The position numbers were made by a program, and so were the translations under genes. The notes beneath the pieces are model-generated. The model did no database searches, was not told the origin of the DNA, and saw only the letters and a program-made list of their open reading frames with translations. DNA of 64,000 bases from the NCBI RefSeq assembly GCF_030013205.1, contig NZ_CP122648.1, one strand, 5' to 3'. The stretch is from Escherichia coli. Its GTDB lineage: Bacteria; Pseudomonadota; Gammaproteobacteria; Enterobacterales; Enterobacteriaceae. Shown piece by piece: positions 51,472 to 62,927 of the stretch; the stretch's first letter is position 1, and every line of letters starts with the position of its first letter.

Positions 51472-51657
51472 CGGATTGAATCTGTTTATGAAATTTGGCT
51501 GCTATCAACTAATGGGCGTTAAGTTGATTGTATGATCTGATTGATAAAGAAGGGGAGACTAAAAATCTCCTCTTCTTTGCAGCAGTTTACTGCGGTCTTT
51601 TTGTGATGCATCAGCATAAAACGTTTTACTTGTGGACCCTAAGAAATGGAGAACATT

Positions 51658-54600
51658 ATGTCGACTGTAGATACCTCTATAGCAGAGGAACTCAATCAAG
51701 GAGGCTCAGATTTTATTCTGACTTCCCTCGAGGCTATGCGTAAGAAGTTATTGGACCTTACGTCTCGAAATCGACTTTTGAATTTCCCTATCACTCAAAA
51801 AGGGTCTTCACTACGTATTGTTGATGAATTACCAGAACAGCTTTATGAAACCCTTTGCTCGGAAATCCCGATGGAATTTGCTCCTGTGCCCGATCCAACT
51901 AGAGCGCAGCTGTTAGAGCATGGCTATCTCAAAGTTGGGCCAGATGGTAAAGATATACAGTTAAGAGCTCATCCTAGCGCTAAGGATTGGGCGCACGTCT
52001 TAGGAATCCGTACAGATTTTGATTTACCAGATAGCCATAAAACGGTTGTTTCTGATTCAGATAGAGAGTTGCTGGAAAAAGCCCATCAGTTTATCTTGCA
52101 ATATGCCCAAGGCCAGAATGGAAAATTAACAGGGATTCGTTCTGAATACGTTAATCAAGGTATAGCTTTGTCAGCGTTGAAGGAGGCGTGCTGCTTAGCA
52201 GGCTATGAAGGGCTTGAGGATTTTGAACGACAGGCAAAGGCTGGGAATGAGATTAGTATATCTTCTTCCAATCCCTCTCATGACGATAATCGGATACAGG
52301 CTCTGCTTTATCCAAATGAACTGGAAGCTTGTTTGCGCGCCATCTATGGTAAGGCTCAAACTGCTTTGGAGGAGAGTGGCGCCAACATCTTGTATTTGGC
52401 GTTAGGGTTCCTTGAGTGGTATGAAAGCGATTCCTCTGAAAAGGCACGTTATGCACCGTTATTTACAATTCCGGTGAGATGTGAACGAGGAAAATTAGAT
52501 CCGAAGGATGGTCTTTACAAGTTTCAACTTTATTACACGGGTGAAGATATTTTGCCCAATCTCTCTTTGAAGGAAAAACTTCAGGCTGACTTTGGCCTCG
52601 CTCTTCCTTTGTTCAATGAAGAGGAAACTCCAGAGTCTTATTTTGCTTCGGTGAAGAAGGTTGTAGAGCAGCACAAACCTAAATGGTCTGTGAAACGTTA
52701 TGGTGCACTTAGCTTGCTCAATTTTGGCAAGATGATGATGTATCTTGACCTCGATCCTGCCCGCTGGCCTTGTGACAAGCGCAATATATTGTCTCATGAA
52801 GTAATTCGTCGCTTTTTCACCAGTCAGAGCTGTGGTCAAGAGAATTCCGGCTTACCTGGTGGCTTCGGTCAGCATGAGTACTGCATCGATAGTTACCCTG
52901 ATATTCATGACAAGGTTCCACTAATCGATGATGCGGATAGCTCGCAGCACAGTGCGTTGATCGATGCTATCCGTGGTCAAAACTTAGTCATTGAGGGCCC
53001 TCCTGGTAGTGGCAAATCACAAACGATCACCAACTTGATTGCAGCAGCTCTGCTCAACGGTAAGAAAGTCCTGTTTGTGGCAGAGAAGATGGCTGCACTG
53101 GAGGTCGTCAAACGTCGCTTGGATCGTGCGGGGCTAGGTCAATTTTGCTTAGAGTTGCACAGTCATAAAACTCATAAGCGCAAGGTGCTGGATGATATTA
53201 ATGCTCGCTTGGTGAGTCAGGCGACCATGCCTACTATGGAAGAGATTGATGCTCAGATTTTGCGTTATGAAGATCTTAAGCAGCAGCTCAATGAATATGC
53301 CGCATTGATCAATAACCAATGGGCGCAAACAGGCAAAACGATCCATCAGATTTTGAGTGGTGCAACCCGTTATCGTCACAAATTAGATATTGATGCAACA
53401 GCACTTCATATCGAAAACCTTTCCGGGAAGCAGTTGGATAAAGTGACCCAATTACGGCTGCGTGACCAAATAGTAGAGTTTAGCCGCATCTACAAAGAGG
53501 TTCGTGAGCAGGTGGGGGCTAATGCAGAAATATATGAGCACCCTTGGAGCGGTGTGAATAACACACAAATTCAATTGTTTGACAGCGCTCGTATAGTCGA
53601 TTTGCTACAAACTTGGCAGACATCAATTATCGACTTTCAACATAGCTATCAAGAATATGTAGATAAGTGGGCGTTAGAAGGCGAAAGCCTTAATACGCTT
53701 CAATATATTGAGCAATTGGTAGAAGATCAGTCGAATCTTCCAGTGTTGTGTGGTTCAGAGCATTTCCCAGCACTTAGTGAGCTAGATTCACCCGATGCCA
53801 TTGCACGGGTGCGTCACTATTTAGATAGGTTCGAGTTGCTACAAGGTCATTATGTGGCCTTGAGCCAGGTTATCGAGCCTCAAAAGCTACGACTTTTAGA
53901 ACAAGGACAATCGTGTGACTTTCCTCGTGAAGAGCTGGAAAAATATGGTGCAGCAGAGGATTTCACTTTACGTGATTTGGTCAGGTGGCTTGAATCCATC
54001 CAATCAATTCATGATGAGTTATCATCTATTTATGCGCAATTAAACGATTTCAAAAATGCTTTGCCAGATGGTATTGCTTCGTATATCGATGATTCGCAAG
54101 CTGGATTGCTATTCTGCTCTGAGTTGTTGTCGATTCTGGGTGCTTTACCGACTGAGCTTATTAGAGTTCGAGATCCTCTTTTTGATGATGATGATATCGA
54201 TGCAGTATTGCGCGACTTAATGTGTCAAATCGAAACATTGCGTCCTTTAAGAGATGGTCTATCTACTTTGTATCAATTGGACCAGTTGCCTTCCCAAGAG
54301 ATGCTCGCGCATGCCGTTGCTGTTATCCAGCAAGGGGGATTATTTGCATGGTTTAAGAGTGATTGGCGTAGTGCCAAGGCACTGCTCATGGCGCAATCTC
54401 GTAAGCCCGACACTAAGTTTGCTGAGTTAAAACGCTGCTCAGCTGATTTGCTCAAGTATTCGGAGCTGTTACAACGGTTTGAACAAAGTGACTTTGGTAA
54501 TCAACTTGGTAATGCATTCCGAGGGTTGGACACCGACTGTGAACAACTCATGTTATTGCGTGATTGGTACAAGAAGGTCCGAGCTTGTTACGGGATAGGT

Positions 54601-57393
54601 TTTGGAAAGCGAGTTGCGATAGGCTCTGGATTATTTAACCTAGATGGTGAGATTATCAAAGGTGTGCATTTAATCGAGAAATCGCAGATTAGCTCAAGAT
54701 TAATGACTTTGGTTAAACGGGTCGAGCACGAGGCTAAGTTATTACCGCGTATTTCTAGCTTGTTGGAAGAACATGCATCTTGGTTAGGTGAGCAAGGTGT
54801 ATTGATGCAATCTTACCGACAGGTGCGGAATACTCTCATTGCCTTGCAGGGATGGTTTATCAATCCAGATATATCATTAGAGCAGATGACTCATTCCTCC
54901 GAGATTTTGCAAAACATAAACGATCTTCAGATATCCCTTGAAAATGACTCGTTACAGTTAGGGGCGTTTTTACAATTAACCCCATTGGCTTGCGGTGCGT
55001 ATAAAAATAATCAACTGACGTTAGACACTATTAACGACACGCTGAATTTTGCCGAGCAACTGGTTGATAAGATAAATTGCGTATCCTTGGCTACCCAGAT
55101 CAGACATTTGGCTAGTGGTAGTGATTACGATTTACTATGTCGTGATGGTGGGGAAATAGTTTCGAAATGGAATGAACAGATTAAAAATGCTGAGTTATAT
55201 GCGCTAGAAACAAAGTTAGAGCGGAGTCAGTGGCTCAAGTCGACTGATGGTTCTCTTAATACATTAATCGAGCGCAACGAAAGAGCAATACAGCAACCCC
55301 GTTGGTTGAACGGGTGGGTTAACTTTATTCGTTGTTACGAGCAGATGGATGAAAACGGATTGCAGCGAATCTGGAGTGCTGTACTTGCGGGCTCGCTCCC
55401 GATTGAAAAAGTTGAATTGGGTTTAGCATTAGCAATTCATGACCAGCTGGCGCGGGAGGTTATTCACATCCACCCTGAATTGATGAGAGTTTCCGGCTCA
55501 CAGCGCAATGCTTTGCAGAAGTCATTTAAAGATTACGACAAAAAACTGATTGAATTACAACGTCAGCGGATTGCAGCAAAAATTGCTTGCCGAAATATAC
55601 CAGAAGGGAATTCTGGTGGTAAGAAAAGCGAATATACAGAACTAGCTTTGATCAAAAATGAGTTGGGTAAAAAAACCAGACATATTCCAATTAGACAATT
55701 GGTTAACCGTGCATGTAATGCGCTGGTTGCAATTAAACCTTGTTTCATGATGGGGCCAATGTCAGCAGCTCATTACCTAGAACCTGGACGAATGGAATTT
55801 GATCTGGTGGTGATGGACGAAGCGTCTCAGGTGAAGCCAGAGGATGCATTGGGTGTCATCGCGAGGGGCAAGCAACTAGTGGTCGTTGGTGACCCGAAAC
55901 AGCTACCACCAACCAGTTTCTTTGATCGAAGTGCCGACGGAGAAGATGACGATGATGCCGCGGCTTTAAGTGATACTGACAGCATTTTGGATGCTGCTTT
56001 GCCACTGTTTCCTATGAGACGTTTGCGTTGGCACTATCGTTCACGACATGAAAAGTTGATTGCATACTCTAACCGCCATTTTTATAACAGTGATTTGGTG
56101 ATATTCCCTTCCCCAAATGCTGAGTCTCCAGAGTATGGGATTAAATTTACCTATGTGTCAAAAGGTCGGTTCTCCAATCAACACAATATTGAAGAAGCCC
56201 AAGCAGTTGCTGAGGCCGTACTTCATCATGCGCAACACCGGCCGGGTGAGTCACTCGGGGTAGTGGCCATGAGTTCCAAGCAACGCGATCAAATTGAGCG
56301 CGCTATCGATGAATTGCGCCGAAATCGCCCTGAATTTAACGATGCAATCGATGGCTTATATGCCATGGAAGAGCCACTTTTTGTGAAAAACCTTGAGAAC
56401 GTTCAAGGGGATGAGCGTGATGTAATCTTTATTTCCTTTACCTATGGACCTTCTGAGCATGGTGGAAAGGTTTATCAACGCTTTGGACCTATCAATTCCG
56501 ATGTTGGCTGGCGTCGCTTGAATGTGCTTTTCACTCGATCAAAAAAACGGATGCATGTGTTTAGTTCAATGCGTTCTGAAGATGTATTGACGAGTGAAAC
56601 CAGTAAACTTGGTGTTATTTCGTTGAAAGGTTTTTTACAGTTTGCCGAAAGTGGCAAACTAGATTCCCTCACAACGCATACCGGCAGGGCTCCAGATAGT
56701 GACTTTGAGGTTGCTGTAATGGAAGCACTCAATCACGCTGGGTTTGAGTGTGAACCTCAGGTAGGGGTTGCAGGATTCTTTATTGATCTAGCTGTGAAAG
56801 ATCCAGGTTGTCCTGGCCGTTACTTAATGGGCATAGAGTGTGATGGTGCGGCTTATCACTCAGCTAAATCTGCTCGTGATCGTGACCGTTTGCGTCAAGA
56901 GGTTCTGGAGCGTTTGGGTTGGAGAATTAGCCGCATTTGGTCCACTGATTGGTTCAGTAATCCTGATGAGGTTCTATCTCCGATTATCCGTAAACTCCAT
57001 GAGCTTAAAACATTGGCTCCAGACGTTGTTGTACCTTCCTATGAATATGTAGAAACGATTGAGTCAAGCGCTGAAGTGGCGTCTGACTCAATTGATTCTC
57101 TTATGCCCAATTTGGGGCTTAAGGAGCAACTTAAGTATTTTGCCACACATGTCATTGAGGTTGAGCTTCCTAATGTTGATGCTGATCGTCGTTTGTTGCG
57201 GCCCGCAATGCTTGAGGCTTTGCTGGAACATCAGCCTTTATCACGTTCCGAGTTTGTTGAACGAATACCTCATTATCTGCGGCAAGCAACAGATGTATAC
57301 GAAGCGCAACGCTTTCTTGACCGAGTCTTGGCATTAATTGATGGCGCAGAGGCTGAAGCGAATGATGCAGCGTTTGAGTCTGAATTGGCATAA
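51658..57393 (+). CDS. Giant DUF4011-type SF1 (Upf1-like) helicase with C-terminal Vsr/DUF559-like endonuclease domain (Hhe-like architecture); candidate defence protein
   Basis: DUF4011-like signatures (LLDLTSRNRLLNF, ILYLALGFLEW), Walker A GPPGSGKS (52996-53019), motif II VVMDEASQ (55807-55830), motifs V/VI QGDERDVIFIS...RRLNVLFTRSKKRM, then GFFIDLAVKD...IECDGAAYHS...RDRDRLRQEVLERLGWRISRIW Vsr-like fold; ATG 51658 has GGAG 6 nt upstream (alternative ATG 51646). Confidence 0.85.
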   Translation: MSTVDTSIAEELNQGGSDFILTSLEAMRKKLLDLTSRNRLLNFPITQKGSSLRIVDELPEQLYETLCSEIPMEFAPVPDPTRAQLLEHGYLKVGPDGKDIQLRAHPSAKDWAHVLGIRTDFDLPDSHKTVVSDSDRELLEKAHQFILQYAQGQNGKLTGIRSEYVNQGIALSALKEACCLAGYEGLEDFERQAKAGNEISISSSNPSHDDNRIQALLYPNELEACLRAIYGKAQTALEESGANILYLALGFLEWYESDSSEKARYAPLFTIPVRCERGKLDPKDGLYKFQLYYTGEDILPNLSLKEKLQADFGLALPLFNEEETPESYFASVKKVVEQHKPKWSVKRYGALSLLNFGKMMMYLDLDPARWPCDKRNILSHEVIRRFFTSQSCGQENSGLPGGFGQHEYCIDSYPDIHDKVPLIDDADSSQHSALIDAIRGQNLVIEGPPGSGKSQTITNLIAAALLNGKKVLFVAEKMAALEVVKRRLDRAGLGQFCLELHSHKTHKRKVLDDINARLVSQATMPTMEEIDAQILRYEDLKQQLNEYAALINNQWAQTGKTIHQILSGATRYRHKLDIDATALHIENLSGKQLDKVTQLRLRDQIVEFSRIYKEVREQVGANAEIYEHPWSGVNNTQIQLFDSARIVDLLQTWQTSIIDFQHSYQEYVDKWALEGESLNTLQYIEQLVEDQSNLPVLCGSEHFPALSELDSPDAIARVRHYLDRFELLQGHYVALSQVIEPQKLRLLEQGQSCDFPREELEKYGAAEDFTLRDLVRWLESIQSIHDELSSIYAQLNDFKNALPDGIASYIDDSQAGLLFCSELLSILGALPTELIRVRDPLFDDDDIDAVLRDLMCQIETLRPLRDGLSTLYQLDQLPSQEMLAHAVAVIQQGGLFAWFKSDWRSAKALLMAQSRKPDTKFAELKRCSADLLKYSELLQRFEQSDFGNQLGNAFRGLDTDCEQLMLLRDWYKKVRACYGIGFGKRVAIGSGLFNLDGEIIKGVHLIEKSQISSRLMTLVKRVEHEAKLLPRISSLLEEHASWLGEQGVLMQSYRQVRNTLIALQGWFINPDISLEQMTHSSEILQNINDLQISLENDSLQLGAFLQLTPLACGAYKNNQLTLDTINDTLNFAEQLVDKINCVSLATQIRHLASGSDYDLLCRDGGEIVSKWNEQIKNAELYALETKLERSQWLKSTDGSLNTLIERNERAIQQPRWLNGWVNFIRCYEQMDENGLQRIWSAVLAGSLPIEKVELGLALAIHDQLAREVIHIHPELMRVSGSQRNALQKSFKDYDKKLIELQRQRIAAKIACRNIPEGNSGGKKSEYTELALIKNELGKKTRHIPIRQLVNRACNALVAIKPCFMMGPMSAAHYLEPGRMEFDLVVMDEASQVKPEDALGVIARGKQLVVVGDPKQLPPTSFFDRSADGEDDDDAAALSDTDSILDAALPLFPMRRLRWHYRSRHEKLIAYSNRHFYNSDLVIFPSPNAESPEYGIKFTYVSKGRFSNQHNIEEAQAVAEAVLHHAQHRPGESLGVVAMSSKQRDQIERAIDELRRNRPEFNDAIDGLYAMEEPLFVKNLENVQGDERDVIFISFTYGPSEHGGKVYQRFGPINSDVGWRRLNVLFTRSKKRMHVFSSMRSEDVLTSETSKLGVISLKGFLQFAESGKLDSLTTHTGRAPDSDFEVAVMEALNHAGFECEPQVGVAGFFIDLAVKDPGCPGRYLMGIECDGAAYHSAKSARDRDRLRQEVLERLGWRISRIWSTDWFSNPDEVLSPIIRKLHELKTLAPDVVVPSYEYVETIESSAEVASDSIDSLMPNLGLKEQLKYFATHVIEVELPNVDADRRLLRPAMLEALLEHQPLSRSEFVERIPHYLRQATDVYEAQRFLDRVLALIDGAEAEANDAAFESELA

Positions 57394-57415: not shown

Positions 57416-57586
57416 GTGACAACTGTCGGACAACGTGAACGCGCAACTCAACAGCGCGTAATCAGGTTTTTTATTGAGGAATTGGGCTATCGTTATCTAG
57501 GCGATTGGCACAAGCGTCCTAACAACCGTAATGTTGAGCCTGATTTGCTCAGTCATTGGTTGATTGACCGTGGTGTTGTGGACTGA
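57416..57586 (+). pseudogene. Small ORF with HsdR-N-like motif, 22 nt downstream of the giant gene; terminated at the IS3-family element boundary
   Basis: GTG start; VTTVGQRERATQQRVIRFFIEELGYRYLGDWHK... ; stop TGA coincides with first bases of the IS; possible continuation at 62297-62484. Confidence 0.35.
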
Positions 57587-57613
57587 CCCCACGCCCGTAG
57601 ACAAATTCTGTCC

Positions 57614-58061
57614 TCACGACGAGGCCTGTTCGAAGGCCTCCGGACTGACGCCGCCGAGGTGACTGTGGCGCCGGGCCCGGTTGTAGAACACTTCAATGTA
57701 ATCGAAGATATCCGCCCGGGCTAGATCCCGGGTTTTGTATATTCTCTTCCTGATGCGCTCTTTTTTCAGTGAACTGAAGAACGATTCGGCCACCGCATTA
57801 TCCCAGCAGTTGCCACGCCGGCTCATGCTCGGGACCAGGTTATTAGCCCGGCAGAAGTGCTGCCAGTCGTCACTGCCGTACTGGCTTCCCTGGTCTGAGT
57901 GCACGATGACCTCGCCGTCGGGTTTACGTCGCCAGACCGCCATCATCAGTGCATCCAGCGCCAGTTCGCGTGAGAGAGTGGGCTTCATCGACCAGCCCAC
58001 CACGTTACGGGCGAAGAGATCGATAACCACCGCCAGATACAGCCAGCCCTGCCAGGTGCGG
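57614..58061 (-). pseudogene. IS3-family transposase OrfB, C-terminal exon (downstream of intron)
   Basis: ...[26 protein letters not shown]...DDE integrase core...NRARRHSHLGGVSPEAFE. Confidence 0.7.
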
Positions 58062-60332
58062 AGTAGAGTAAGAGGCAGGGCGTAGTCGGACTATTTCCCT
58101 GCCTCTCCTCCCCGAACCGGACGTGCACCTTTCAGCGCATCCGGCTCTCCATTTAAATGCTGGCGAACGCCATTGCCACTTCTGTAAAGCGCGATGTATA
58201 CGTGTTTCTGGTCTCCGTCCTCAGATAGGGATTACCTTCGGGTAGCCGCCAGCGGAACAGCTTCTTGCCTTGCCCCACCAACCGGTACAGTATTTCGCCG
58301 CTGAGCTTGCCGTGATTGGTTTTACCAAATAAAACCCACGTTTTGCTCTGACCCGGTTTCGGTGATTTACACCACCACCTCATCAGGGAAGCGATACCTG
58401 TACGGTATTTGTGGGCCAGCCAGTGAGCCAGCTTCCAGAACACGACACGGTCGATATAACTGAAGACTTTGGCCTTAAAATCAACGAACTGATAGAACAT
58501 GGCCCAGCCTTTCAGTTTTCGGTTGAGTTGTTCAGCCATATCGACTTTGCTTTCACTGTAGTTGCCTGATAACAGTGCTGTCAGCGATGCGGCGAAGTTT
58601 CTGGCTTTCTCCTGCGGGATCGTTGAGACCACTCGCATCTCGCCATAACGACTGCGTTTGCGAATGATCCTGTGCCCCAGAAAGATAAAGCCGTCATTAA
58701 CATGGGTGATTTTAGTCTTATCCATGTTCAGCCTGAGTTTCAGACTGCCTTTGAGCACACCCCGACACTCCTCCCTGATGGCTTCCGCCTGTGCTTTGGT
58801 GCCTTTGACGATGAGGACAAAATCATCGGCATAGCGGCAGTACGCCACCGCGGGTTTCCACTGCCAGTTTTCTCTGACCGCCGTACTTCGGCCCCGTTGG
58901 ATACTGTTATTCCAGTACCACCGATCTTTTCTGGCTTTCCCGCTCAGGTAGCGCTCATGCAGGTATTGATCGAACTCATTCAGCATGATGTTCGATAATA
59001 GCGGCGATATAACACCGCCCTGTGGCACACCTTCACTGGCCGCCCGAAAGAGACCGACATCGATATGTCCCGCCTTGATGGTTTTCCACAGCAGAGTCAT
59101 GAAACGTGCGTCACTGATCCTGCGGCGTACAGCCTTCATCAGCAGTCGATGATGTACGGTGTCGAAGTAACTGGACAGGTCGCCTTCAATCACCCAGCGT
59201 CCCCGGGTTTCACCACAGTCTGTGAGCTGTAATTTCACCGTGCGGATCGCGTGGTGGACACTGCGCTCAGGCCGGAAGCCATATGAGAGCGTATGAAAAT
59301 CACTCTCCCATATCGGCTCCATCGCCATCAGCATGGCCCGCTGAACAATACGATCCCGCAACGCGGGGATACCCAGTGGTCGCAGTTTGCCGTTGCTTTT
59401 AGGGATGTAAACCCGTCTGGCGGGCAAGGGCTGGTAGTGGCCTGAGAGTAATTCATCCCTGAGGATTTGCAGCTCAACAGCCAGTCTGGCCTGTAGCATT
59501 GTTTTGTTCACGCCATCAACGCCGGGGGTATGGGCCCCCTTTGATGAAAGCGTGATCCGCGCCGCTTCAGCCAGCCATTCTGGTTGTGTTATCAGACGCA
59601 GCAGCCGTTGAATCCGTAGGGACGGATCGGTGGCTGCCCATGTGGCAAGCTTGCGTTGCATTTCGCTGATTATCAAAGGTCTTCACCTCGTTAGGTCAGT
59701 TAATTCACGTCGTAAACACATTCAAACTGCTTCCCTTCGCCATGTAATGGGCTTTCCCCATCGCGGACTACTACGGAAGCTCCGCCAGCCAGCGCGTCAT
59801 CGGAGCCATGCCCCCTTAACATCCGTCGCTGACCTTCCCCGGTTTACCTGCCTGGACTCAGGCATACTGAGGAGGCTGCCCGTCGCACTCTTTATCCTTG
59901 CTTGCCGCAAGTTGGCAGAAGTCAGCAACGCAAGCGTGATAGACGCTGCTGCCCCGGTGTTTCGCATACATGTCAAAACACCTTCGACCGGCAGTGCTTA
60001 CGTATCACTGCCAGTTCCTCCTGCACGGCCTGTCAGATCACGTAGGCCGTGGTGACGTTTTCAACCCACAGAGGCGGATTAACGGGTTCATGTTCTTCAG
60101 CCTTTCAGTACTTAACCTTGAGGATCATCTCGGCTTAGTGATCTCGCCTCAATCCCCGTTGTCAGCGGGTTACATCACCTTGCGGGCATGCCGCAGGTCA
60201 CTGCCGCTCAGGTTCTCCACCGTCACACCCGGTGGGATTGTTGGGTTTCTCATCGTGAGTTACCGGTTCAATATTCCAGACAGATTCGCGGTTCATTTAA
60301 GCATCCATGCCCGCCCTGAACTCCGGGCACAC
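58062..60332 (-). mobile_element. Bacterial group II intron (about 2.27 kb) inserted in IS3-family orfB
   Basis: 5' end GUGUG at the exon junction (minus strand), 3' end ...CUAC; domain V-like hairpin GAGCCGGATGCGCTGAAAGGTGCACGTCCGGTTC near 58100-58135; reverse-transcriptase ORF in domain IV. Confidence 0.75.
58153..59676 (-). CDS. Group II intron-encoded reverse transcriptase/maturase
   Basis: 507 aa; reverse-transcriptase motifs including YADD (YCRYADDFVLIV); maturase X-like C-terminus. Confidence 0.85.
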   Translation of the reverse strand: MIISEMQRKLATWAATDPSLRIQRLLRLITQPEWLAEAARITLSSKGAHTPGVDGVNKTMLQARLAVELQILRDELLSGHYQPLPARRVYIPKSNGKLRPLGIPALRDRIVQRAMLMAMEPIWESDFHTLSYGFRPERSVHHAIRTVKLQLTDCGETRGRWVIEGDLSSYFDTVHHRLLMKAVRRRISDARFMTLLWKTIKAGHIDVGLFRAASEGVPQGGVISPLLSNIMLNEFDQYLHERYLSGKARKDRWYWNNSIQRGRSTAVRENWQWKPAVAYCRYADDFVLIVKGTKAQAEAIREECRGVLKGSLKLRLNMDKTKITHVNDGFIFLGHRIIRKRSRYGEMRVVSTIPQEKARNFAASLTALLSGNYSESKVDMAEQLNRKLKGWAMFYQFVDFKAKVFSYIDRVVFWKLAHWLAHKYRTGIASLMRWWCKSPKPGQSKTWVLFGKTNHGKLSGEILYRLVGQGKKLFRWRLPEGNPYLRTETRNTYTSRFTEVAMAFASI

Positions 60333-60693
60333 TATAGGTCACATCACCGCACCACACCTGATTTGGCTCGGTCACGGCGAACTGCCGTTCAAGGTAGTTA
60401 GGGATAGCAACGTGCTCATGACCGCCACGCTTATACCGGTGAGTCGGCTGCTGGCAACTGACCAGTCCCAGCTCTTTCATGAGTCTGCCAGCAAGCCAGC
60501 GCCCCATCTGGTAGCCTCTCCGGGTTGCCATTGTGGCGATGCTTCTTGCTCCGGCAGAGCCGTGGCTGATGCCATGCAGTTCAAGTACCTGGCTGCGTAA
60601 TACAGCCCGTCTGCCGTCTGGCTTTTCAGGACGGTTTTTCCAGTATTTGTAGCTGCTGCGATGGACCCCGAACACATGGCAGAGAGTGGCCAC
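60333..60693 (-). pseudogene. IS3-family transposase OrfB, N-terminal exon (upstream of intron)
   Basis: ...[14 protein letters not shown] then intron; IS911-like. Confidence 0.7.
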
Positions 60694-60761
60694 AGGATAA
60701 CGCGCCCTGAGTTTCCCGATTATCGAGAACTGTTCAGGGAGTCTGACATCAAGAGCGCGGT

Positions 60762-61982
60762 TGTAGATTCAATTGGTCAACGCAACAGTTATGTGAAAAC
60801 ATGGGGTTGCGGAGTTTTTTTGAATGAGACGAACATTTACAGCAGAGGAAAAAGCCTCTGTTTTTGAACTATGGAAGAACGGAACAGGCTTCAGTGAAAT
60901 AGCGAATATCCTGGGTTCAAAACCCGGAACGATCTTCACTATGTTAAGGGATACTGGCGGCATAAAACCCCATGAGCGTAAGCGGGCTGTAGCTCACCTG
61001 ACACTGTCTGAGCGCGAGGAGATACGAGCTGGTTTGTCAGCCAAAATGAGCATTCGTGCGATAGCTACTGCGCTGAATCGCAGTCCTTCGACGATCTCAC
61101 GTGAAGTTCAGCGTAATCGGGGCAGACGCTATTACAAAGCTGTTGATGCTAATAACCGAGCCAACAGAATGGCGAAAAGGCCAAAACCGTGCTTACTGGA
61201 TCAAAATTTGCCATTGCGAAAGCTTGTTCTGGAAAAGCTGGAGATGAAATGGTCTCCAGAGCAAATATCAGGATGGTTAAGGCGAACAAAACCACGTCAA
61301 AAAACGCTGCGAATATCACCTGAGACAATTTATAAAACGCTGTACTTTCGTAGCCGTGAAGCGCTACACCACCTGAATATACAGCATCTGCGACGGTCGC
61401 ATAGCCTTCGCCATGGCAGGCGTCATACCCGCAAAGGCGAAAGAGGTACGATTAACATAGTGAACGGAACACCAATTCACGAACGCTCCCGAAATATCGA
61501 TAACAGACGCTCTCTGGGGCATTGGGAGGGCGATTTAGTCTCAGGTACAAAAAACTCTCATATAGCCACACTTGTAGACCGAAAATCACGTTATACGATC
61601 ATCCTTAGACTCAGGGGCAAAGATTCTGTCTCAGTAAATCAGGCTCTTACCGACAAATTCCTGAGTTTACCGTCAGAACTCAGAAAATCACTGACATGGG
61701 ACAGAGGAATGGAACTGGCCAGACATCTAGAATTTACTGTCAGCACCGGCGTTAAAGTTTACTTCTGCGATCCTCAGAGTCCTTGGCAGCGGGGAACAAA
61801 TGAGAACACAAATGGGCTAATTCGGCAGTACTTTCCTAAAAAGACATGTCTTGCCCAATATACTCAACATGAACTAGATCTGGTTGCTGCTCAGCTAAAC
61901 AACAGACCGAGAAAGACACTGAAGTTCAAAACACCGAAAGAGATAATTGAAAGGGGTGTTGCATTGACAGATTGAATCTACA
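60762..61982 (+). mobile_element. IS30 (1,221 bp) inserted into orfA of the IS3-family element
   Basis: Terminal inverted repeats TGTAGATTCAATTGGTCAACGCAACAG and ...ATTGAATCTACA; exact IS30 length. Confidence 0.85.
60824..61975 (+). CDS. insI: IS30 transposase
   Basis: 383 aa MRRTFTAEEKASVFELWKNGTGFSEIANILG... with DDE motif. Confidence 0.9.
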   Translation: MRRTFTAEEKASVFELWKNGTGFSEIANILGSKPGTIFTMLRDTGGIKPHERKRAVAHLTLSEREEIRAGLSAKMSIRAIATALNRSPSTISREVQRNRGRRYYKAVDANNRANRMAKRPKPCLLDQNLPLRKLVLEKLEMKWSPEQISGWLRRTKPRQKTLRISPETIYKTLYFRSREALHHLNIQHLRRSHSLRHGRRHTRKGERGTINIVNGTPIHERSRNIDNRRSLGHWEGDLVSGTKNSHIATLVDRKSRYTIILRLRGKDSVSVNQALTDKFLSLPSELRKSLTWDRGMELARHLEFTVSTGVKVYFCDPQSPWQRGTNENTNGLIRQYFPKKTCLAQYTQHELDLVAAQLNNRPRKTLKFKTPKEIIERGVALTD

Positions 61983-62239
61983 GCGGCTTTTTTTAATATG
62001 TCCCGTTCGTCGGTAACCCGTTTCAGCTCTTTCTGGAGACGGCGGATCTCGGCCTGAGCATCTGACTGTTCTTTATTAGTGGAAGAATCCGGACCGTACT
62101 TCTTTATCCAGGCATAAAGGCTGTGGGTGGTGATATCGAGACGTGTTGCAACGCTGGCAACAGAATAACCACGATCAACAACCTGTTTGACTGCTTCAGT
62201 TTTAAACTCTTCGGGATAACGCTTACCGCTCATGGGCAC
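61983..62239 (-). pseudogene. IS3-family transposase OrfA, interrupted near its 3' end by IS30
   Basis: MSGKRYPEEFKTEAVKQVVDRGYSVASVATRL (HTH)...DILKKAA then IS30; the remaining orfA codons ([13 protein letters not shown]) lie at 60723-60761. Confidence 0.7.
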
Positions 62240-62927
62240 CTCTCTTTAAGCCATCTTAAATGACTCTGAGGTGTCTGTTAAACCCGTGGCGATTCACGTA
62301 TCGCATTGGGCAAACTAAAGATGTGTATGTCTATTACCCAACTGTGAGAGATACTGAAATTACAACATTTGAAGAAACTCTGGATAACCTCCTACAACGC
62401 CGACGAGCATTGGCCAGAGATATGCTCTGCGCTACTCCCGATTTGAACTGTGCGGATTTTGAGACCATTTTGAAGGGAGCCTAACCGATATGAGCGGCAA
62501 TACTGCCAGTTGCCAAACCTGAAATAACACTTAGCTGTGATGATTCGCTATTACCTACCGATAGCTTCGGAAAACATAAATTAAAAATGCCCAGGGGAGT
62601 ACTATTATCGTTAGCATTACCCGAACGCCGTATTAACGGTTATTTATTGGTAAGTGCTACGTTCCATGGCAAGAGTTCATCAACACGGTTAGCCGACAGT
62701 ATATTGAGTATATGGCGCAGATATGCTTGCGGATTGATACCATTCAGACAGCAGGTCCCGCTCAGCCCGTACAGTAGAGCGCCGTTCACTACCGTAATCA
62801 CTGCCGAAAAACACATTGATTGCCCCTCAATAATCCTGCCGTCAACGTCAAAATTGCTGGTCGGGCTCGACTTATTTAATTGTGTAAACAGGGCCTCTCA
62901 GCGAAGGCCCTTATGCATCACCTGATG

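Follow-up and report, generated by a model that had tools for sequence, protein, structure and literature searches.

The 64,000-nucleotide (nt) stretch of Escherichia coli DNA analyzed here (contig NZ_CP122648.1; hereafter the window) carries on its minus strand a group II intron of 2270 nt, at positions 58063-60332 as read directly from its two junctions. The element is almost certainly a full-length copy of E.c.I4, a named, common, and published self-splicing mobile intron, lying at its usual target in the transposase gene orfB of an IS3-family insertion sequence (IS); in this respect it is ordinary and already known. Its host, to judge from the sequence, is a dead composite that consists of an ISEc52-like orfA, an inverted IS30, a 5' exon of the IS911 type, and a 3' exon of another IS3-family member. 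The features discussed below are listed in Table 1.

Boundaries and Identity of the Intron

The presence of a group II intron is far beyond chance. The Rfam model of domains V and VI (RF00029) matches at 58149..58063(-) with 64.9 bits (E = 1.7e-10; gathering score 40), and both ends agree with the group II rule (5' GUGYG, 3' AY), with GUGUG at 60332 and CUAC at 58063; an initial annotation of the window had likewise named a GUGUG start and an AC end, and both appear when the junctions are read. On the minus strand the 5' junction is ...TGG TGC GGT GAT GTG ACC TAT A|GUGUGCCCGG... (in a shorter reading of the intron, GTGTGCCCGG) and the 3' junction is ...CUCUUACUCUAC|TC CGC ACC TGG CAG... (in a shorter reading, CTCTTACTCTAC). 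The target site formed by the 5' and 3' exons is here GGTGATGTGACCTATA|TC, the predicted ligated junction is ...GTGACCTATA|TCCGCACC..., and an uninterrupted related element reads ...ACTTATATCCGCACCTGG... across the insertion point (L006; L-numbers denote comparison stretches fetched for alignment).

The initial annotation is right to within one base and strand. It had placed an intron at 58062-60332; the intron is there, but its lower bound is 58063, since the 3' exon starts with 58062, and counting that base as intron would shift the frame. It had also put the insertion exactly at a DVTY|IRT codon boundary. The site does follow DVTY, but the junction is of phase 1, falling one base inside the Ile codon (TAT A|TC). 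The proposal that joining the exons restores the catalytic-core motif of IS3-family transposases holds up: the product is in frame, and the exons spliced in silico give a single colinear match of 343.7 bits to the IS3-transposase model NF033516. Thus, both features on which that annotation had made its reading depend, a domain V/VI fold and an orfB frame that joins across the intron, are found.

Aligned to E.c.I4-2b of strain E24377A (L005), the intron shows no gaps and 9 mismatches in 2270 positions. Leclercq and Cordaux 2012 (PMC3522654) gave the range of E.c.I4-2b as NC_009801 4848623-4850893, which is 2271 nt, compared with the 2270 nt obtained from the reading frame and the uninterrupted copies; the published figure is explained by a T at +1 that is shared by both exon types. 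The same study describes a 1764-bp fragment in the K-12 prophage CP4-6 as E.c.I4-tr1. This fragment, K-12 272191-273954, lies upstream of IS5A, includes ykfC, and differs from the window intron at 8 of 1764 positions. E.c.I4 has been placed in bacterial class A, among introns with open reading frames (ORFs) that lack an endonuclease (PMC3552965). The intron class, for which the initial annotation had asked, is accordingly taken from the literature, with sequence identity to E.c.I4 as the connection that would make the window copy a class A member.

This intron is abundant. By megablast it is matched in 2664 of 5426 complete E. coli genomes, at approximately 5500 places on chromosomes and plasmids both, and copies covering at least 80% of it are found in 1873 of the 5426 (about a third). 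Most of these are at least 99% identical, a level that is reached by 2641 of 3085 E. coli records. The first 32 nt of the intron, used as a probe of representative genomes, returned only 4 stretches, from Tenebrionibacter and Kluyvera, and were of no help on the mutation spectrum; in Tenebrionibacter intestinalis, three contigs match these 32 nt a few bases from the end of the returned stretch. The Kluyvera georgiana contig NZ_LXEU01000113.1 (L026, 2271 bp) consists entirely of a diverged intron copy and one further base, and is presumably a collapsed repeat in a draft assembly.

A Composite Host Element

The host element has the IS3-family organization of orfA and orfB for a DDE transposase; the motif A AAA AAA G, for -1 frameshifting, is read between the two, and the orfA piece matches NF033516 at 62.6 bits. 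This left part is 99.7% identical to L003, with homology that begins exactly at 62296. The two exons, in turn, point to different elements. The 5' exon is 429 bp long both here and in K-12, and the alignment that contains it is 98.9% identical to K-12 'IS911A-1' plus intron. The 3' exon is 99.4% identical to the intact element of L006, has 2 mismatches in 484 nt compared with L022, and loses homology at 57579. In L003, L005, and L031, the WCGDVTY-type 5' exon is joined across the intron to 3' exons of the IWTGKRW type, and the 3' exon of L003 differs in type from that of the window from its first bases on. The IRTWQGW-type 3' exon has VWVTDITY as its native 5' partner in both L006 and L022. 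Within the collection of 5426 genomes, the intron together with the native 5' junction of the window's 3' exon (VTDITY) occurs in 107 genomes and the window's 3' junction in 181, while the window's own exon pair occurs uninterrupted in none (0 of 5426).

The outer ends are likewise discordant. The left end (TGAATCGCC...) and the right end (TGGACTGACCCC..., also read TGGACTGACCCCACG...) are no matching pair, and the IS3-type element, flanked by TACG and CAAC, shows no 3-4 bp target duplication. A related arrangement is seen at L006:770-2043 of strain LH13-b, where a left end with the sequence of window 62296-62257 is interrupted after exactly 40 bp by an intact IS3-family element (ends TGGACTGACCCC...), whose other end is overlapped by a second member of the family.

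The IS30 copy is 99.6% identical to K-12 IS30A over 1221 bp and encodes a transposase that matches NF033563 at 276 bits. No 2-bp target duplication is found at its ends, where the flanks read ...GCCGC| and |ACCGCG.... The same element without IS30 (L003) reads AAAAAAAGCCGCGCTC, relative to which the window has five extra bases. In the CP4-6 prophage of K-12, IS30A occupies the same dinucleotide of IS911-type sequence, inverted relative to the window and with an AC|...|AC duplication. The two flanks of the window IS30 seem to stem from insertions into two different IS3-family elements.

These features bear on a further claim of the initial annotation, namely that splicing could restore orfB. 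If the intron interrupted a single IS3-family transposase gene, splicing would yield a functional orfB and the IS would be conditionally active; the in-frame, colinear junction, the intact ribozyme hallmarks, and the intact intron ORF are all compatible with this. Nevertheless, we regard it as extremely improbable. The idea fails because the 5' and 3' exons belong to different elements, because IS30 parts orfB from orfA, from the frameshift site, and from the only promoter-like site (62281-62253), and because the left and right ends are unpaired and without a target duplication. In addition, the orfA frame reads into IS30 and stops there. The number of sites in the promoter scan as a whole does not exceed chance. 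Any splicing would give only a hybrid orfB segment lacking a translation route as OrfAB.

The Intron-Encoded Protein

The only long ORF within the intron lies in domain IV and encodes a reverse transcriptase (RT) and maturase, with matches to Pfam RVT_1 (1.2e-34, residues 91-337) and GIIM (3.3e-10, residues 361-426). It passes NCBIfam TIGR04416 with 339.8 bits (cut-off 300), retains an intact YADD at residue 282, and has LtrA (5g2x) as its closest solved structure (E = 2.9e-52). A Pfam search found no HNH (D/En) endonuclease domain in this protein, which ends approximately 80 residues after GIIM.

The 507 codons given for this ORF in the initial annotation are borne out when it is read from a TTG start (intron nt 657-659), whereas RefSeq begins at an ATG five codons downstream, for a protein of 502 residues. 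The first base of this TTG is also the final one of the domain IVa hairpin GAGGU-GAAG-ACCUU (nt 644-657), which carries the Shine-Dalgarno sequence. The start codon is ambiguous (window 59657-59676 (-)), and the sequence around both starts is invariant in all nine relatives used for the structural comparison.

Ribozyme Structure

The E. coli copies are too alike for covariation analysis; the relatives were therefore taken through protein search, which gave nine introns, on metagenomic and genomic contigs, with proteins 69-86% identical to that of the window. RNAalifold applied to the 5' 665 nt of this set (alignment A1) predicts 151 pairs in domains I to III, of which 79 have compensatory changes, and thereby delimits the three domains by covariation, as the initial annotation had asked, along with the domain IVa hairpin; the closing stem of domain I is nt 6-10 / 491-495. 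When the 5' 673 nt were folded from one sequence by minimum energy (z = -2.5), the architecture was unrecognizable, and the comparative fold was used instead.

At the 3' end, 8 of 33 pairs in domains V and VI covary. The domain V-like hairpin that had been noticed initially matches RF00029, folds with z = -5.6, and is conserved in the nine relatives, with one covarying pair. Domain VI has a bulged A at -7, within the 7-8 nt from the 3' splice site that group II introns show; it is invariant in the nine relatives, on a helix with compensatory changes. Taken together, a six-domain secondary structure is supported by covariation in the comparative model.

One segment of this structure has a separate annotation in K-12. 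The small RNA gene eyeA (272580-272654) corresponds to intron domain I nt 390-464, or window 59869-59943 (-), where window and K-12 show no differences. By this correspondence, 'EyeA' looks like a fragment of the ribozyme.

Exon Recognition and the Homing Site

To find the exon-binding sites (EBS), each intron was matched to its own 5' exon, and the composite alignment was tested against shuffles and slid registers. Over EBS1 and EBS2 combined, pairing holds in 86.9% of cells and double changes occur at 7 of the 13 pairs; none of 500 shuffles reaches this level, and the slid controls range from 19 to 56%. EBS1 contributes double changes in 5 of its 6 pairs, with 90% of cells paired. In the window, EBS1 pairs with 5'-exon positions -6..-1 (CCUAUA) at 5 of 6 positions and EBS2 forms 8 bp with GGUGAUGU (-16..-9). 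The EBS2 core pairs are kept in 10 of 10 sites. At nt 276, a C pairs here with the G of a Val codon (GUG), while in relatives a U pairs with the A of an Ile codon. EBS1 and EBS2 of the E.c.I4 lineage are thus assigned by covariation. An earlier EBS1 candidate, UGUGGGU (nt 263-269, pairing with ACCUAUA), was rejected; the motif is conserved whatever the exon sequence of the relatives.

This assignment accounts for insertion into unrelated IS3-family members at one conserved position beside D-V/I-T-Y, a motif that we take to hold the first catalytic Asp of the IS3-family transposase. The window intron stands in sense orientation relative to orfB and is separated from the D(V/I)TY codons by one base. 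In each of the 11 further E. coli copies, D-x-T/S-Y/F is likewise followed by one base of the next codon and then by the intron, and 7 of the 9 relatives occupy the same phase-1 position after D-I/V-T/S-Y/F in an IS3-type orfB, with two elsewhere. Many different IS3-family elements are hit at this position because the target codons are conserved across the family. The placement in the window matches the published target of E.c.I4, specific positions in IS629, IS911, ISEc16, and ISEc31 (PMC3522654), and is therefore no curiosity of this locus.

Further details come from individual relatives. At L007:1346-3614, the intron lies in an intergenic site of a plasmid, with EBS1 changed to ACCAUU, matching AAUGGU, and with the EBS2 target UGAUAUU kept. 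The pair L009/L010:1340-3599 shows one and the same intron in two settings, an IS3 site in L010 and, with partial matches, a non-IS site in L009. L007 and L009/L010 are examples of retargeting and ectopic insertion. At L011:1326-3599, the EBS1 loop GGUAUG leaves 3 of 6 positions unpaired against its own exon, GCUACG, and the loop of a neighboring hairpin contains UGUAGC, which would pair perfectly with that exon.

A route of mobility can be proposed from established group II biology. The RT/maturase would bind the intron RNA at domain IVa and aid splicing through the branch A of domain VI. The resulting lariat-protein particle would reverse-splice into DNA that presents intron-binding sites (IBS) as IBS2-IBS1, paired with EBS2 and EBS1, and the protein would then make a DNA copy of the inserted RNA. 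As the protein has no endonuclease domain, its priming would probably occur on replication-fork DNA, as in RmInt1.

Probable Exchange of Exons Between Intron Copies

Comparison of the window with L003, L005, L022, and L028-L034 distinguishes three types of 5' exon (WCGDVTY, VADFTY, and VTDITY) and three types of 3' exon (IWTGKRW, ISTWQGF, and IRTWQGW), which occur in six of the nine possible combinations in 11 E. coli copies. With three types on each side and six combinations, at least three of the combinations are therefore recombinant. Homologous recombination between intron copies that reside in different elements is the simplest explanation of the exon mismatch, and the pattern suggests that such recombination between IS3-family elements is frequent. 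Chimeric host elements were noted in Table S2 of PMC3522654; individual cases were recorded there, and we found no treatment of exon shuffling as a general process in the literature.

Alternatively, the hybrid exon pair could predate the intron, which would then have invaded a mosaic IS3-family element by ordinary retrohoming. IS3-family elements are known as mosaic, and in L003 the A-type orfA runs naturally into the IS911-type segment. We nevertheless consider this order of events unlikely, given that both parental intron-bearing configurations exist, that the exon types combine freely, that the terminal repeats are mismatched, and that the exon pair is absent in uninterrupted form from the genome collection, as described above.

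By the recombination reading, E.c.I4 copies could serve as portable 2.3-kb homology cassettes that shuffle the transposase halves of IS3-family elements, with the window as one recombinant; its private G-to-A substitutions (see below) might then reflect a strand-specific process, such as deamination at the complementary DNA stage. We offer this only tentatively, as a somewhat doubtful extension.

State of the Window Copy

The copy has an intact ORF with its YADD, as well as intact domains V and VI, intron ends, and EBS sites. Relative to two outgroups and 11 further copies from E. coli, it has five private substitutions, all of them G-to-A on the sense strand. G48A keeps its pair (G-U to A-U). 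In the protein, residue 422 is H here, compared with the common R. Among E. coli copies with 99% identity or more, G>A changes seen once exceed such C>T changes by 12 to 4, or by 7 to 4 when the window copy is left out; a general G-to-A bias among E. coli copies is not established.

Several points weigh against viewing this locus as a competent E.c.I4 copy that homed in the usual way and gained its exon pair by recombination. Two of the private substitutions fall at conserved places: G153A turns a C-G pair of domain I that is conserved in the relatives into C-A, and G1581A causes E309K, at a position where 19 of 20 relatives have E. With five private substitutions that include these two, the copy may be impaired. 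The EBS1 pairing contains a U-C mismatch at -5, the third position of the Thr codon, and EBS3 was not located: the +1 base is U at all but one of the 10 sites, and that one has no matching change. For priming at the replication fork, the reading draws on analogy with other introns that lack an endonuclease. Moreover, the crossover is not mappable within the intron because the copies are approximately 99.6% identical and leave too few informative sites, and retrohoming into a hybrid element that already existed is a less likely alternative.

It is quite possible, if still short of probable, that the intron is an inert relic, brought in with the island or by recombination and no longer splicing or moving. 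Besides the private substitutions, and in particular the disrupted domain I pair and the change at a conserved protein position, this is favored by the lack of a promoter-like site between IS30 and the intron on the intron strand, by the single intron copy in this genome type, and by frameshifted ltrA copies elsewhere (L027 and L032). The full-length ORF and the intact ribozyme and recognition elements speak against a relic, and one C-A mismatch with one amino acid substitution amounts to mild changes.

Genomic Context and Significance

The window matches strain K_EC180 and sister swine enterotoxigenic E. coli/O139 strains. From a tRNA-Ser gene (37415-37499) onward it consists of a CP4-type island (window approximately 37415-64000), which contains cbtA/cbeA, an antirestriction gene, a GTPase, a complete type I restriction-modification system, ISKpn26, and part of a second type I M gene, as well as hhe and the nest of ISs and intron. 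The nest is adjoined by hhe (51646-57393 (+)), a gene for 1915 residues that RefSeq annotates as the DUF4011 anti-phage protein Hhe. Directly downstream of hhe, a 56-codon ORF (57416-57586 (+)), which we take to resemble the N-terminus of a type I restriction R subunit, is truncated at 57579, where it meets the right end of the IS3-type element.

RefSeq annotates the nest piecemeal, as ltrA and several transposase pseudogenes. The importance of the present analysis lies mainly in annotation: the locus can be described as a nest of an IS3-type hybrid, IS30, and the intron E.c.I4, with intron boundaries and reading phase that are now exact. Mismatched exons on the two sides of an intron copy are a sign of past recombination, and such copies are relevant to the interpretation of rearrangements and assembly breaks in E. 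coli islands.

Table 1. Features of the intron and its composite host element, with window coordinates.
Feature	Position	Strand	Basis
Complete group II intron E.c.I4 (bacterial class A by sequence identity), 5' GUGUG ... 3' CUAC	58063..60332	-	boundaries read; ungapped alignment to E.c.I4-2b
Domain I, intron nt 6-495, closing stem nt 6-10 / 491-495 (predicted)	59838..60327	-	RNAalifold covariation
Domain II, intron nt ~496-549 (predicted)	59784..59837	-	covariation-supported helices
Domain III, intron nt ~553-604 (predicted)	59729..59780	-	covariation-supported helices
RT and maturase ORF in domain IV, 507 residues from TTG / 502 from ATG	58153..59676	-	Pfam, NCBIfam
Domain V, 34-nt hairpin with AGC triad, 2-nt bulge, and GAAA loop	58114..58147	-	RF00029; fold z = -5.6
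Domain VI, bulged branch-point A at 58069, 7 nt from the 3' splice site	58065..58111	-	fold and comparison
EBS1, UGUAUG, intron nt 363-368, hairpin loop	59965..59970	-	covariation with own exons
EBS2, ACGUCACC, intron nt 275-282	60051..60058	-	covariation with own exons
Private G-to-A sites, intron nt 48, 153, 620, 1581, 1921	60285, 60180, 59713, 58752, 58412	-	copy comparison
5' exon: N-terminal part of IS911-type orfB, ending ...WCGDVTY and first Ile base	60333..60761	-	alignment, translation
3' exon: C-terminal part of a different IS3-family orfB, stop codon 57614-57616, right end ...GGGGTCAGTCCA	57579..58062	-	alignment
Left end (TGAATCGCCACGGG...) and orfA, ISEc52-like annotation, truncated by IS30	61983..62296	-	alignment
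IS30, 1221 bp, opposite to the IS3-type element, directly after the frameshift motif	60762..61982	+	alignment, NF033563

Comparison with Known Systems

The layout of RT and maturase and the EBS/IBS-guided retrohoming proposed here resemble those of Ll.LtrB and its protein LtrA from Lactococcus lactis. LtrA differs in having DNA-binding and endonuclease domains, and its intron is of the IIA type, whereas the window protein ends approximately 80 residues past its maturase domain. A likeness of another kind, by description rather than by sequence, is to RmInt1 of Sinorhizobium meliloti, a class D intron in ISRm2011-2, which likewise lacks an endonuclease and homes into an IS transposase gene, and which differs from E.c.I4 in intron class, RNA subtype, and host IS family. 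Passages of PMC3035460 and PMC4238363 portray RmInt1 as behaving like a retroelement, not a benign intron, with poor restoration of exons after splicing.

The closest known system is E.c.I4 itself (also named S.f.I1 or 'IntA'), found in E. coli and Shigella, which has the same length, the same endonuclease-less protein, and the same homing position in IS3-family orfB as the window copy. The window copy differs from it at the allele level only, by the five private G-to-A substitutions and, in the protein, by K309 and H422 compared with WP_001189123.1. The CP4-6 prophage of K-12 (IS911A :: IS30A :: IS911A-1, eyeA, ykfC, IS5A) has the nearest arrangement: both nests lie within CP4-type islands, and K-12 shares with the window the 429-bp IS911-type 5' exon, the intron, and the upstream dinucleotide at which IS30 is inserted. 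Unlike the window copy, the K-12 intron is cut at nt 1764 by IS5 and its 3' exon is gone, and its left part is the canonical IS911 orfA where the window has the ISEc52-like orfA.

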